From a virus (Duplodnaviria > Heunggongvirae > Uroviricota > Caudoviricetes), in IMG/VR virus record IMGVR_UViG_2698536677_000017: a stretch of DNA of 5,474 nucleotides. One strand, given 5' to 3'. Positions 2,561 to 5,474 of this stretch are shown here, piece by piece. Position numbers and translations under genes: made by a program. The notes under the pieces are model-generated. The model saw only the letters and a program-made list of their open reading frames with translations, was not told the DNA's origin and did not search any database. Numbering within the stretch: position 1 is the stretch's first letter; every line of letters begins with the position of its first letter.

Positions 2561-2986
2561 TTAGTGCATCACCACAGCATTCCCTGCCGGGCCGCCGCGA
2601 TTCATCTGGTCATACAAAACAACCGCTGACGCAACAAAATCATCGACATCCTTCACCAGCCGATCCCTCCGTTCGACGATCTCACGGTAATATTCAGAAC
2701 TGTGGCTGCGCATACGGGCCACCAGCAAAGGCGGCATCGCCTTTTCGATCGCCGGTAACAGAGCCTGCATTTTTTTAACAGCATCAGGGGTGTCTTTCTC
2801 TACCCAGCGGAAAATTTTCTGGGTATTACGGGCCAGGGCTTCCGGATGGCTGTCGTCATACAGTTCCGGGAACGTCATTCCCAGCTCGAAATACGCTTTG
2901 GTAATTTTCGCAGCCGGTACTTTTTCGCCGTCCGGATGCGCCCAGACATTCATCGCCATGCGGATGTGTTCATGCTTGATTTTCAT
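2561..2986 (-). CDS. YdaT-like protein (Rac-type early gene; described either as a CII-like regulator or as a putative toxin)
   Basis: 141-aa ORF beginning MKIKHEHI..., ATG start with GGAG 7 nt upstream. Its start overlaps the stop of the upstream Cro-like gene by 4 bp (ATGA). Position (cro-like, then this gene, then O-like, then DnaC-like) matches the Rac ydaS-ydaT-ydaU-ydaV order. Family call is from memory. Confidence 0.65.
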   Translation of the reverse strand: MKIKHEHIRMAMNVWAHPDGEKVPAAKITKAYFELGMTFPELYDDSHPEALARNTQKIFRWVEKDTPDAVKKMQALLPAIEKAMPPLLVARMRSHSSEYYREIVERRDRLVKDVDDFVASAVVLYDQMNRGGPAGNAVVMH

Positions 2987-3285
2987 GAATCAACTCCATC
3001 AGATAAGCATGTACTACAATCACCTTCAGCATGAACTACATGTGTTTGCCCCAAACGAATGCCGCTCGCATACTCAGGCCAAATAAGCTCCCAATCATGG
3101 GGTCGTAGCTCCGCCCTACTTACTTGGCCTTCCGTCGCAGATTCGATCATAAGGGCGCGGGTTGGAGATATAGCTGTTCGTCCAGACGCCATTTGCGATA
3201 AGTAAGATGGCGATACACCAAGTCTGGCCGCGAATTTCTTAGCATCACCAACCCTTAATGATTTAATAAACTCTTTTAATGTCAT
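2983..3285 (-). CDS. Cro-like HTH regulator, YdaS family
   Basis: 100-aa ORF, ATG (complement of 3283-3285) with GAGGAAGG SD just upstream. The motif LGVSPSYLSQMASGRTAISPTRALMIESATEGQVSRAELRPHDW is typical of the YdaS/Cro-like HTH family. First gene transcribed leftward from the divergent operator region. Confidence 0.8.
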   Translation of the reverse strand: MTLKEFIKSLRVGDAKKFAARLGVSPSYLSQMASGRTAISPTRALMIESATEGQVSRAELRPHDWELIWPEYASGIRLGQTHVVHAEGDCSTCLSDGVDS

Positions 3286-3382
3286 ACCTTCCTCGGTTTA
3301 GTGTTTTTTTGCGAGTTTAGTGTTTAATAAACCATTAAGTCAAGTATTTGCTTGTTTAGTGATTACTAAAGATAATTACCAC
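3286..3382. promoter_or_regulatory. Divergent operator/promoter region (OR-like) between the Cro-like gene and the repressor gene
   Basis: Seen in sequence: three copies of the half-site GTTTAGT at 3296, 3315 and 3354. Two sit in palindromic contexts: AGTTTAGT-gttt-AATAAACC (3314-3333) and TTTAGT-gatt-ACTAAA (3355-3370). Candidate rightward promoter: -35 TTGCTT (3348-3353), 17-bp spacer, -10 GATAAT (3371-3376), placing the transcription start at or next to the repressor ATG (3383). Candidate leftward promoter: -35 TTGACT (complement of 3338-3343), -10 TAAACT (complement of 3314-3319), 18-bp spacer. Confidence 0.6.
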
Positions 3383-3754
3383 ATGCAAAAAAAAGAAATT
3401 CGCCGTTTACGTCTCAAGGAGTGGTTTAAAGATAAAACTCTGCCACCCAAAGAGAAGAGCTACCTATCTCAACTAATGAGTGGGAGAGCCTCGTTTGGAG
3501 AAAAGGCTGCCAGAAGAATAGAGCAAACATACGGGATGCCGGAAGGGTATCTGGATGCGGAATACGCAGAACAACCGGGGGTTTCTCCACCACATGCAGG
3601 GTTAACGTCTAATCAACTGGAATTATTGCAGATTTTTTCAGCCTTCCCTGAGGATGAGCAACGCCAGATAATCAGCGAGTTAAAGCAGAAAAAAGAATCA
3701 ATGGAAGATCTCATAGCGAGATGGATTGCGGCGCAAAAATGCCGCCGCGCCTGA
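3383..3754 (+). CDS. Prophage repressor, short HTH protein, DicA/RacR-like (no S24 peptidase domain)
   Basis: ATG at 3383 chosen over the GTG at 3320 given in the ORF track, because the upstream extension would cover the operator/promoter sequences. The N-terminal segment EKSYLSQLMSGRASFGEKAARRIEQTYGMPEGYLD is HTH-like; the C-terminal segment LTSNQLELLQIFSAFPEDEQRQI resembles the DicA C-terminal region as I recall it. No SD precedes the start and the -10 lies 7 nt upstream, so the mRNA is probably leaderless. Confidence 0.75.
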   Translation: MQKKEIRRLRLKEWFKDKTLPPKEKSYLSQLMSGRASFGEKAARRIEQTYGMPEGYLDAEYAEQPGVSPPHAGLTSNQLELLQIFSAFPEDEQRQIISELKQKKESMEDLIARWIAAQKCRRA

Positions 3755-3774
3755 GTTATAAAACCGGAGGAAAC

Positions 3775-3966
3775 ATGAATAGAGCCCTTTCACCAATGGT
3801 TTCTGAATTTGAAACCATTGAACAAGAAAACAGTTACAACGAATGGCTGCGTGCGAAAGTAGCAACGAGCCTTGCAGATCCGCGCCCAGCAATTCCCCAT
3901 GACGAAGTTGAGCGCAGAATGGCAGAACGCTTTGCTAAGATGCGTAAGGAACGGAGCAAGCAGTAA
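3775..3966 (+). CDS. Type II antitoxin, ParD/RelB-like ('stability determinant' type), partner of the downstream ParE-like toxin
   Basis: 63-aa ORF (MNRALSPMVSEFETIEQENSYNEWLRAKVATSLADPRPAIPHDEVERRMAERFAKMRKERSKQ). ATG at 3775 with GGAGG (3766-3770) 4 nt upstream; the upstream ATG at 3721 overlaps the repressor and has no SD. The stop TAA (3964-3966) is 1 nt before the toxin ATG. Small, acidic-to-basic profile and position upstream of the toxin are typical of antitoxins. Confidence 0.7.
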   Translation: MNRALSPMVSEFETIEQENSYNEWLRAKVATSLADPRPAIPHDEVERRMAERFAKMRKERSKQ

Positions 3967-3967
3967 A

Positions 3968-4246
3968 ATGTTACCCGTGTTATGGCTTGAAAGCGCAGAT
4001 ACCGACCTAGATGATATAACTAGTTATATTGCTCGTTTCGACATAGATGCGGCTGAACGCTTATGGCAGCGATTAAGGGGTTGTGTGCTGCCGTTATCCG
4101 AACATCCGTATTTATACCCACCAAGCGACAGAGTACCTGGCTTGCGTGAGATTGTAGCCCACCCTAACTATATAATTCTATACCGCGTAACAACATCAAG
4201 CGTTGAAGTAGTAAACGTGATCCACGCAAGACGCCAGTTTCCCTAA
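3968..4246 (+). CDS. Type II toxin, ParE/RelE superfamily
   Basis: 92-aa ORF (MLPVLWLESADTDLDDITSYIARFDIDAAERLWQRLRGCVLPLSEHPYLYPPSDRVPGLREIVAHPNYIILYRVTTSSVEVVNVIHARRQFP). The pattern W..A..DL..I..YI...D...A, then PG.RE......YII.YRV, then V.VV.V.H.RR at the C-terminus is characteristic of ParE/RelE toxins. ATG at 3968, 1 nt after the antitoxin stop. The ORF-track start at 3872 would overlap the antitoxin and is rejected. Confidence 0.8.
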   Translation: MLPVLWLESADTDLDDITSYIARFDIDAAERLWQRLRGCVLPLSEHPYLYPPSDRVPGLREIVAHPNYIILYRVTTSSVEVVNVIHARRQFP

Positions 4247-4265
4247 CTTTCACTACCAATAGAAA

Positions 4266-4310
4266 CATAACAACCGCAACGACTTTATCAAAAGCGTTGT
4301 GTTTGTTATG
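4266..4310 (+). terminator. Long hairpin downstream of the toxin gene (terminator candidate, or a regulatory palindrome)
   Basis: Seen in sequence: CATAACAACCGCAACG (4266-4281) pairs with CGTTGTGTTTGTTATG (4295-4310) across a 13-nt loop, giving a 16-bp stem with one mismatch and one G-U pair. A T-rich run (GTTTAGTTTTT, 4319-4329) follows, but only after a 9-nt gap, so it is not a textbook intrinsic terminator. Confidence 0.4.
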
Positions 4311-4316
4311 CCCCGC

Positions 4317-4358
4317 GGTTTAGTTTTTACTTGACTTAAGTTTAATGTTTATTAAACT
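4317..4358 (+). promoter_or_regulatory. OL-like operator plus rightward promoter candidate (PL analogue) for the ydfA-like operon
   Basis: Seen in sequence: GGTTTAGT (4317-4324) is identical to the OR copy at 3295-3302. A perfect palindrome AGTTTAAT-gttt-ATTAAACT (4339-4358) closely resembles the OR site at 3314-3333. Promoter candidate: -35 TTGACT (4331-4336), 16-bp spacer, -10 TAAACT (4353-4358), with the -10 inside the palindrome. Confidence 0.5.
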
Positions 4359-4537
4359 AAAAATACCAACCCACCCCGCCCCACAGAACGCAGGGAAATA
4401 CTTCGAGTTACCCGGCAGTGGTCAGGGGTTAAGTAGCCAGCCCGAGGCGTATGAACATGACGGCGGGAACACTTTGTATAACAGCGCAGCAGGTTTTTTG
4501 TTCCGCTACCCCGGCGTTAAGGGGAAATGAGGTCAAC

Positions 4538-4690
4538 ATGGATACGCTCAATCTTGGCAACAACGAATCTCTGGTATGCGGTGTGTTCCCTAACCAGGAC
4601 GGCACCTTCACCGCGATGACGTATACCAAAAGTAAAACGTTTAAAACCGCAGCTGGTGCGCATCGCTGGTTAGCAAGAAACACTGACTGA
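4538..4690 (+). CDS. Small prophage protein, DUF1391 family (YdfA/YdaF-like)
   Basis: 50-aa ORF (MDTLNLGNNESLVCGVFPNQDGTFTAMTYTKSKTFKTAAGAHRWLARNTD). ATG at 4538 with GAGG (4529-4532) 5 nt upstream; the in-frame upstream ATGs at 4451 and 4457 lack an SD. Family recalled from the Qin/Rac small proteins ydfA and ydaF, which sit next to the repressor gene in those prophages. Confidence 0.65.
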   Translation: MDTLNLGNNESLVCGVFPNQDGTFTAMTYTKSKTFKTAAGAHRWLARNTD

Positions 4691-4701
4691 TGAGGTTGAC
4701 G

Positions 4702-5040
4702 ATGGAATTTAAAGATTTACCTCCTTCAATCCAGGAGATTGCAGCACACACACTTCGTCATCGTCTGAACGAACTTGAATTGGAATCGGTAACAAAAAAA
4801 GACACTGATAATATGGCTCGCAATGTGCGCGATGCGTTTACTGGGCTGTTTTCAGATACAGCTTTAAATATCCATGGCACAGAGGATACAGCAAAACAAT
4901 TTGCAGAAAAAGAAGTGGAAGATCCCAGTTCAAAGAGCCAGAAACAGCCAAACAACCATGAAATTAACGAACTGCTTCTGGCAACAGGCTTCATAAATAT
5001 TAACGAATATGAACGCCGTAAAAAAATGTTATCTGATTAA
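4702..5040 (+). CDS. Hypothetical acidic protein, 112 aa, no recognisable family
   Basis: ORF with ATG at 4702 preceded by GAGG (4692-4695) at a 6-nt spacing. An alternative start is the ATG at 4690, which overlaps the stop of the upstream gene as TGATG. No hydrophobic segment and no motif I recognise. Confidence 0.6.
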   Translation: MEFKDLPPSIQEIAAHTLRHRLNELELESVTKKDTDNMARNVRDAFTGLFSDTALNIHGTEDTAKQFAEKEVEDPSSKSQKQPNNHEINELLLATGFININEYERRKKMLSD

Positions 5041-5223
5041 TCCATCAAGATATCTTTTTAGCATCAGCGTTTCTACGTTATTAAAACCATCAGATTTTAA
5101 CATAGCTTCGATTCGCTGATTTAAATTGCCAACTAACTGTTGATACTGAGTAGATGGAAGCATGTGTACCAGCTCCTTGAGAACACAATAACATGCACCA
5201 AGTTTTAACTCCTGCTCTGACAT
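5029..5223 (-). CDS. Hypothetical small protein, 64 aa, convergent to the previous gene
   Basis: Minus-strand ORF (MSEQELKLGACYCVLKELVHMLPSTQYQQLVGNLNQRIEAMLKSDGFNNVETLMLKRYLDGLIR). ATG (complement of 5221-5223) with a strong GGAGGA SD 4 nt upstream. Its 3' end overlaps the 3' end of the plus-strand gene by 12 bp. The upstream in-frame ATG at 5235 in the ORF track lacks an SD. Confidence 0.6.
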   Translation of the reverse strand: MSEQELKLGACYCVLKELVHMLPSTQYQQLVGNLNQRIEAMLKSDGFNNVETLMLKRYLDGLIR

Positions 5224-5474
5224 TTTATCCTCCATTGAGGTTACTGGTTGAGAATGGAGACCTCTCGTGACAGCGTGTGGTCGAGCGCCGGACACGGATA
5301 AGAATCCGGCACTGACAGTTTACTGAAAGGATATTTCCCTGAAAAGTCAGACCATAACGCGAAAGCGTACGGCGAGGTAGCTGGTTCATAGATAGCCTGT
5401 CGTTAAATTTTCGTCGACCGTGCGCTTCCGGTTGTGGCAATCCGCGAAATGGCGCGGCGGTAAGTATGGCGGGG

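Follow-up and report, generated by a model that had tools for sequence, protein, structure and literature searches.

A CP-933P-type lambdoid Escherichia coli prophage carries the paaR2-paaA2-parE2 operon in its immunity region

The three genes and their identity

We analysed a 5474-nt stretch of viral DNA (IMG/VR record IMGVR_UViG_2698536677_000017; the whole stretch is called the window below), which holds the immunity and replication region of a lambdoid prophage in the orientation opposite to the usual lambda map. A Cro-like gene, OR-type operators, a repressor gene, an antitoxin gene, a toxin gene, a hairpin and OL-type operators with a rightward promoter follow one another in this order (Table 1). 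The same order had been proposed in an earlier analysis of the sequence without database searches (the sequence-only reading), and each element was found at the coordinates given there. That reading also placed the toxin-antitoxin (TA) pair in the slot which rexAB occupies in lambda, in agreement with the published descriptions, where the pair lies between the repressor gene and PL/OL (PMC8630535) and "replaces rexA and rexB" (PMC9986795). From sequence identity, the region is recognised as the paaR2-paaA2-parE2 operon (RAE2), which forms part of the immunity region in a CP-933P-type lambdoid E. coli prophage. The finding is therefore already known and the arrangement, which the sequence-only reading had taken as uncharacterised, has been described since 2010 (Hallez et al. 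2010) and was dissected in 2021 (PMC8630535) and 2023 (PMC9986795).

The 92-aa toxin was identical at 92/92 positions to the crystallised ParE2 of E. coli O157:H7 (PDB 5cw7_B, E = 7.1e-60; also 5cze and 5czf). It matched the Pfam family ParE_toxin (PF05016) with an E-value of 1.9e-16 and a score of 60.9 bits against a cut-off of 23, with 89/89 positions of the profile covered, and had weak PDB matches to 3kxe, 6x0a, 5ceg and 8c24 (E from 3.6e-05 to 3.2e-03). For the 63-aa antitoxin, residues 2-63 (62/62) were identical to PaaA2 (PDB 3zbe_A/5cw7). Its sole Pfam match was the PaaA2 family (PF21217; E = 1e-19, 70.7 bits against a cut-off of 27), and no ParD or ribbon-helix-helix (RHH) family was matched at E <= 0.01; NCBIfam names the protein RelB-family. 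The proposal that the pair is of the ParDE type was thus half right: the profile searches suggested at the time returned ParE_toxin for the 92-aa protein, while the 63-aa protein belongs to the PaaA family and not to ParD. According to published work, PaaA2 shows no detectable DNA-binding motif, its binding to ParE2 is cooperative, and both ClpAP and ClpXP degrade it; over-production of ParE2 leads to an SOS response, and co-localisation of ParE2 with the nucleoid has been reported (PMC8630535).

The repressor open reading frame (ORF) begins with the ATG at 3383 and ends with a TGA stop at 3752-3754. Residues 1-66 of its product, PaaR2, were the same as in PDB 7nkv/8c3k, whose entry name is 'Phage repressor protein CI', and its N-terminus, MQKKE, agrees with that of the sequenced protein (PMC8630535). 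The protein was assigned to PHROG 5736, transcriptional regulator, with E = 2.3e-39. No Pfam family, and hence no Peptidase_S24, was matched at E <= 0.01, and the C-terminal part showed only a weak likeness to the C-terminus of DicA (28.5 bits against a cut-off of 101). PaaR2 has been reported to have no peptidase motif and not to respond to mitomycin C (PMC8630535).

The O157:H7 genome used for comparison of proteins and module was that of strain JEONG-1266. From the start of OR to the end of PL (3286-4365, 1080 bp), the window differed from this genome at 3 bases, none of them in OR. PaaA2 and ParE2 were identical in both, and PaaR2 was identical at 122/123 positions, the difference being G67V in the inter-domain linker; the counts for YdaS and YdaT are given in Table 1. 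Every feature of a PaaR2-PaaA2-ParE2 module that can be tested in sequence was present: the toxin, the antitoxin, a regulator beginning with MQKKE upstream on the same strand, ydaS-ydaT, the PL/OL set and the YdaT operator OM. In O157:H7 the locus has been placed within the immunity region of CP-933P, a cryptic lambdoid prophage (Jurenas et al. 2021, PMC8630535), in which PaaR2 stands in place of CI (Prolic-Kalinsek et al. 2023, PMC9986795).

Table 1. Genes and regulatory features of the window, with positions counted from its first base
Feature	Position	Strand	Basis or remark
DUF1627 gene	62-832	minus	left end of window
DnaC-like ATPase gene, frameshifted into two parts	854-1569	minus	
O-like replication gene	1576-2553	minus	15-nt iteron-like repeats inside, at 2114-2212
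ydaT, functional analogue of CII	2561-2986	minus	Pfam YdaT_toxin PF06254, E = 3.8e-09; 138/141 aa as in O157:H7
OM, high-affinity operator of YdaT	2976-2993		ydaS/ydaT junction; exact match to TTGATTN6AATCAA, TTGATTTTCATGAATCAA
ydaS, helix-turn-helix protein, Cro analogue	2983-3285	minus	Pfam YdaS_toxin PF15943, E = 3.3e-12, and HTH_3; 99/100 aa as in O157:H7
OR-type control region, 97 bp	3286-3382		PR- and PRM-type promoters in divergent orientation; half-sites of the GTTTAGT type, repeated
PR-type promoter, TTGACT-18-TAAACT	3314-3343	minus	drives ydaS-ydaT; consensus scan and sequence; hexamers as mapped by us
PRM-type promoter, TTGCTT-17-GATAAT	3348-3376	plus	direct reading of the sequence; putative hexamers
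paaR2, 123-aa repressor, CI analogue	3383-3754	plus	PDB, PHROG and O157:H7 comparison
paaA2, 63-aa antitoxin	3775-3966	plus	identity to PDB 3zbe/5cw7; Pfam PF21217
parE2, 92-aa toxin of the ParE family	3968-4246	plus	identity to PDB 5cw7/5cze; Pfam PF05016
Stem-loop, 20 nt past the toxin stop	4266-4310	plus	21-nt arms; putative terminator
OL-type operators, overlapping the PL-type promoter	4311-4365		direct and inverted copies of the OR repeats (D1, D2, I1, I4)
PL-type promoter, TTGACT-16-TAAACT	4331-4358	plus	consensus scan; reads outward from the TA genes, towards the DUF1391/ydfA-like operon
Rightward operon, first gene DUF1391 (ydfA-like)	beyond the OL/PL set	plus	

Promoters, operators and transcript ends

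The antitoxin ATG at 3775 lies exactly 20 nt past the repressor stop, as the sequence-only reading had counted, with GGAGG at 3766-3770 upstream of it, and the toxin ATG lies 1 nt past the antitoxin stop. In the gap between the repressor and antitoxin genes, a consensus scan picked up nothing resembling a promoter or a terminator. A hidden terminator between paaR2 and paaA2 was considered and rejected, as the GC stem at 3728-3748 had a z-score of 0.28 relative to shuffled sequences and was not followed by a T-run. An internal promoter for the TA genes found no support: the sole plus-strand match (9/12, at 3987-4015) lies within parE2, and the total number of such sites was within the shuffle expectation. 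Scan and fold together thus gave no promoter and terminator that would isolate the pair from the repressor transcript. Given the 20-nt and 1-nt gaps, with no promoter or terminator intervening, the pair should be made whenever the repressor is made. This is what the sequence-only reading had expected, and it accords with published work: the three genes form one operon that PaaR2 down-regulates (Hallez et al. 2010, cited in PMC8630535), and a leaderless start of the PRM type has been mapped (PMC8630535).

In CP-933P two divergent promoters, PR933P and PRM933P, lie in a 97-bp region and were confirmed by rapid amplification of cDNA 5' ends (5' RACE; PMC8630535). The OR region of the window has the same length as the published one and the same sequence as in O157:H7. 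Transcription from PRM933P has been mapped to begin at the paaR2 start codon itself, which makes the mRNA leaderless like that of lambda cI, and the sequenced N-terminus is MQKKE (PMC8630535). In the window the candidate PRM-type hexamers are TTGCTT at 3348-3353 and, after the 17-nt spacer, GATAAT at 3371-3376, which places +1 at the A of the paaR2 ATG at 3383. This site scores 8/12 to the consensus, under the scan threshold, and so would be a weak promoter, fitting the need for activation. Read from the sequence in this way, the assignment of the hexamers and a leaderless paaR2 mRNA are most likely correct for the window as well.

The half-site GTTTAGTNW occurs four times in the 5474 bases of the window, at 3296, 3315, 3354 and 4318 only. 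The first three fall within the 97-bp OR region, the last within OL. Shuffled sequences gave an expectation of 0.34 copies, and none of 200 shuffles reached four. The OR and OL regions are in part inverted copies of each other, with a perfect 12/12 arm (3335-3346 and 4328-4339) and a 24-nt arm at 79%, and the PR-type (3343-3314) and PL-type (4331-4358) sites have identical hexamers, TTGACT and TAAACT. The same features have been described for CP-933P, where PL933P, beyond the TA genes, has hexamers identical to those of PR933P and three operators (OL1-3), and is repressed about 100-fold by PaaR2 and YdaS (PMC8630535). In DNase I footprinting PaaR2 covers 78 bp and YdaS 65 bp, on overlapping operators made of GTTTAGTAA-type repeats; the same study also drew on EMSA and on GFP reporters for PRM, PR, PL and PRE (PMC8630535). 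At a low level PaaR2 activates PRM933P and represses PR933P, YdaS binds and represses both PR and PRM in the manner of Cro, and the PaaR2/YdaS locus is bistable (PMC8630535).

A second route to the operon runs through YdaT, a CII-like protein that switches on a promoter of the PRE type located between ydaS and ydaT (PMC8630535), which yields an alternative transcript of the repressor-TA operon (PMC8630535, PMC9986795). The YdaT operator, TTGATTN6AATCAA, and its footprint have been mapped (PMC9986795). The OM motif in Table 1 was the sole match to this operator in the window, even with two mismatches permitted.

The repressor-TA transcript probably ends, or is terminated, at the hairpin behind the toxin gene, by analogy of position with the terminator of the lambda immunity region. 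The hairpin sits where a terminator would be needed to bar PRM transcripts from the PL operon. Its arms are 81% complementary, and the fold of 4240-4335 (96 nt, with the hairpin inside) had a centroid energy of -20.4 kcal/mol and a z-score of -4.24 relative to shuffles. A variant of the module in E. coli RM8082, described below, has a canonical stem followed by TTTTTT at the equivalent position after the toxin gene. On the other side, no U-run directly follows the hairpin, so the terminator scan made no call, and the sole stem difference, at 4309 in Escherichia phage Evi, breaks a pair. No compensatory change was found in the stem, on which the relatives, either near-identical or unalignable there, carry little information. 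The hairpin also contains, on the minus strand at 4264-4291, a promoter-like site facing parE2 (TTGATA-16-TATGTT, with an extended -10 TG). This site could yield an antisense transcript; it is a 9/12 match, and the number of such sites was within the shuffle expectation.

On the 3' side of PL, a segment of about 95 nt (4366-4460, plus strand) was near-invariant in heteroimmune O157, Evi, RM8082 and Tritos sequences, and the relatives that share it differ in operators, repressors and cargo. The segment is the 5' leader of the PL operon, in which no N-like gene was seen. A structured cis-acting RNA, put- or nut-like, was considered for 4366-4460 and found no support (z = 0.44 relative to shuffles, no Rfam match); variation among the relatives was too small for a covariation analysis. 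The conserved segment may simply mark where the immunity module recombines, or it may be a cis element that has escaped recognition.

Relatives of the module and the flanks of the window

We surveyed 5426 complete E. coli genomes and counted as carriers those with at least 80% of the module. The module was found in 595 genomes (about 11%), with at least 99% identity in 574, and its places were chromosomal in all but one. Carriers include O157:H7, O111 and O121 strains as well as ST131-type strains. Among 50,697 phage records, only one, that of Escherichia phage Evi, encodes ParE2. Evi has been described as a coliphage from the faeces of infants (PMC10910852). The Evi module and that of the window are 97.7% identical, and positions 5069-5347 of its record (LR597642.1) hold an intact parE2, unannotated there, whose protein is the same as the window's. 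The module is thus not confined to cryptic prophages.

The sequence-only reading had suggested comparing what fills the slot in related prophages, and the comparison gave two outcomes. Five heteroimmune phages (Tritos, 689R5, 666R9, 640R1 and 683R6) share the sequence past PL, and in these the repressor gene ends about 105-150 bp before the conserved sequence 3' of PL. Such a gap leaves room for operators only, so the slot is empty in 5/5; one of them, Tritos, has a more distant repressor of similar layout and no TA genes. In a prophage of E. coli RM8082 (2573-3474 of its locus) the slot is filled, in the same order, by a PaaA-ParE pair with 95% and 89% amino acid identity to that of the window. 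The N-terminal domain of the RM8082 repressor, as well as its Cro, YdaT and operators, are unrelated to those of the window, which implies a different immunity specificity, while the C-terminal domain of the repressor is homologous to that of PaaR2 (49% identity over 61 aa, E = 5e-18). These sequences suggest a recombination joint inside the RM8082 repressor gene. This variant is possibly of the paaR1-paaA1-parE1 type, the CP-933M paralogue.

A wider survey used one genome per species across bacteria and the best 80 ParE2-like loci, with 47-74% identity. In these proteobacterial loci a PaaA2-like gene was directly upstream of the toxin gene in 76/80, and a homologue of PaaR2 was found in none of the 80. 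PaaA-ParE pairs similar in size to that of the window were seen in Acetobacteraceae, Acidithiobacillus, Pseudomonas, Bartonella, Burkholderiales and others. A dedicated upstream regulator at these pairs was looked for by a crude inspection of neighbouring ORFs, which is indicative only, and found no support: the neighbours were heterogeneous, e.g., MutS-like or replication-protein-like. The inspection also returned spurious high-GC ORFs, and some contexts were plasmid-like.

The distribution fits a mobile two-gene cassette that would have been captured in an accessory slot after the repressor gene, an idea already suggested in the 2021 paper (PMC8630535). What the present analysis adds is small: Evi as a carrier, heteroimmune relatives with an empty slot, and a two-gene unit that is widely distributed.

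The flanks of the window gave several further observations. Beyond about 4527 the window does not align to the O157 prophage until 5282, which indicates that the content of the PL operon is mosaic. A 116-aa ORF at 4690-5040 (plus strand) aligns to the first half only of PHROG 2151 (positions 1-101 of 212), and its counterpart in the best-matching genome is a truncated pseudogene according to RefSeq. On the other side, the DnaC-like gene lacks 31 bp between 1271 and 1272, just upstream of the Walker A motif, in comparison with the best E. coli match, which is 99.9% identical and has an intact 747-nt gene. The deletion leaves two ORFs of 114 and 128 aa and, with the DnaC-like gene broken, the prophage is probably replication-defective. 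Within the O-like initiator gene, five to six tandem 15-nt units (TTTGACGGGTCAA-like) at 2114-2212 look like origin iterons, as in lambda O. An Rfam scan of the whole window (E <= 1) gave a chance match to mir-250 on these repeats as its sole hit, and no RNA family in or around the module.

Proposed role and comparison with known systems

With high confidence, we explain the region as a CP-933P-type RAE2 operon, most likely an addiction cassette wired to the prophage repressor. PaaR2 binds the repeated operators in OR and, past the toxin gene, in OL, and shuts off the Cro/CII-like ydaS-ydaT operon and the PL-type promoter. Low levels of PaaR2 stimulate its own weak, leaderless promoter, and YdaS competes for the PaaR2 sites. 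The paaA2 and parE2 genes ride on the repressor transcript, with the YdaT-activated PRE-type promoter as a second route to expression. PaaA2 neutralises ParE2 by complex formation and is labile to ClpAP/ClpXP. Once PaaA2 is degraded, a cell that has lost the locus keeps the stable ParE2, suffers DNA damage with SOS induction, and dies (post-segregational killing). As an addiction cassette the pair would most likely keep the prophage, or just the immunity region within it, from being lost or replaced.

Published experiments on a near-identical sequence have shown how the operon is built, that its transcript starts without a leader, that the operators are bound, that the regulators act on each other's promoters, that the locus is bistable and that it stabilises a plasmid. 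The toxicity of ParE2, its neutralisation by PaaA2 and post-segregational killing have been published for proteins identical to those of the window (PMC8630535). On a mini-F plasmid, the complete region is as good a stabiliser as ccdAB, via post-segregational killing, and the authors of that work proposed that an addiction module inserted in the immunity region limits rearrangements, including heteroimmune replacement (PMC8630535). The retention function that the sequence-only reading had named as one option is thereby borne out for a plasmid, not for a prophage. We infer that, where it naturally sits, the pair exacts a cost when the immunity region or the prophage is lost or replaced.

Several points weigh against this explanation. 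The stabilisation was shown for a mini-F plasmid and not for the prophage itself. The sequence used in the published experiments was near-identical and not identical, and the window carries PaaR2 G67V and a broken DnaC-like gene. Single-cell work found no ParE2 activity (SOS) in either transcriptional state (PMC8630535). Finally, reports bearing on gyrase as the target of the toxin diverge: beside the SOS induction and nucleoid co-localisation (PMC8630535), ParE2 has been reported neither to bind GyrA59 nor to inhibit gyrase in vitro (PMC10886550).

Retention of the pair might also serve no one except the pair. As purely selfish cargo, it would hitch-hike in a permissive slot after the repressor gene and act for its own retention only, with no benefit to phage or host. 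The empty slot in 5/5 heteroimmune phage relatives is what such an account would lead one to expect, as are the single ParE2 among the phage records, the spread of the two genes as a mobile unit among Proteobacteria, in settings that vary and are in part plasmid-like, and a steady state without a phenotype. The mechanism is the same as in addiction and only the beneficiary differs, so sequence alone cannot separate the two, and the high conservation over O157:H7, ST131-like and other lineages fits either. We regard this account as possible, though clearly the less probable of the two.

A phage-directed function, in which the pair is a lysogen-expressed module for abortive infection or superinfection exclusion (a true rexAB replacement) or a guard of immunity identity that kills heteroimmune-swap recombinants, appears unlikely. 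Taken separately, the exclusion version is somewhat more doubtful still: infection would trigger transcription shut-off or proteolysis, deplete PaaA2, free ParE2 and abort the infection. It would suit the lambda rexAB position with co-transcription with the repressor, and the lability of PaaA2 to ClpAP/ClpXP is a property exploited by TA-based abortive systems. The neighbourhood in relatives has other lysogen-expressed host-modifying genes, e.g., dicB and kil, and the near-identity of the module across the 574 genomes is consistent with it. However, neither protein is related in sequence to RexA or RexB, the Pfam scan of the 63-aa and 92-aa proteins giving PaaA2 and ParE_toxin only. The PADLOC-DB v2 defence models matched none of the three proteins at E <= 0.01, the literature searched contains no published phage-challenge test of PaaR2-PaaA2-ParE2, and ParE2 activation was unseen under the conditions of PMC8630535.

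The locus was first described as a three-component TA system (Hallez 2010, cited in PMC8630535). That PaaR2 is not primarily a phage repressor but the detached DNA-binding half of a split antitoxin, in an ordinary self-regulating TA system near phage genes, is in keeping with the down-regulation of the operon by PaaR2 and with a PaaA2 that has no detectable DNA-binding motif, and the split-antitoxin idea was raised by the authors of PMC8630535. This reading is largely refuted and very improbable, since PaaR2 represses PR and PL about 45- to 100-fold in a bistable switch with YdaS, operators lie on either side of the operon, at OR and at OL, in the manner of lambda, the same C-terminal domain occurs in the repressors of relatives, one of them with a different DNA-binding domain, Tritos has a distant repressor of similar layout without TA genes, and PaaA-ParE pairs of other Proteobacteria have no PaaR2 homologue.

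The TA pair may serve the prophage or the host by retention, by guarding the immunity region from recombination, or by excluding phages. As the locus, its regulation and the comparison with lambda cI-rexAB are all published, novelty is left only in the roles of phage exclusion and immunity guard. With Evi, an isolated coliphage, as a carrier, these are open to testing with live phage. The case has value for calibration, as an experimentally verified regulatory layout was rebuilt from raw sequence.

Compared with CP-933P / Sp12 of O157:H7, the window has the same ydaS-ydaT partner operon, the same YdaT operator and the same PL/OL set. It differs in PaaR2 G67V, in the divergence past about 4527, in the 31-bp deletion of the DnaC-like gene and in a host background that is not O157: the best whole-window matches, at 99.9%, were ST131-type and other human and water isolates. 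With lambda cI-rexA-rexB it has in common that accessory genes follow the repressor gene and precede OL/PL; they are part of a leaderless repressor mRNA, which comes from a weak PRM that the repressor itself activates, and they are on in the lysogen. Whereas lambda RexAB is an abortive-infection or exclusion system, the slot here holds a type II TA pair with demonstrated addiction activity, and whereas lambda CI has an S24 autocleavage domain, PaaR2 is without it. With the classical parDE systems (RK2, Vibrio cholerae parDE2, Caulobacter parDE1), the locus shares the fold and family of the ParE toxin and the capacity for plasmid-stabilising addiction. In contrast to these systems, the antitoxin is PaaA and not ParD and has no RHH DNA-binding domain, and autoregulation has accordingly passed to a separate repressor.

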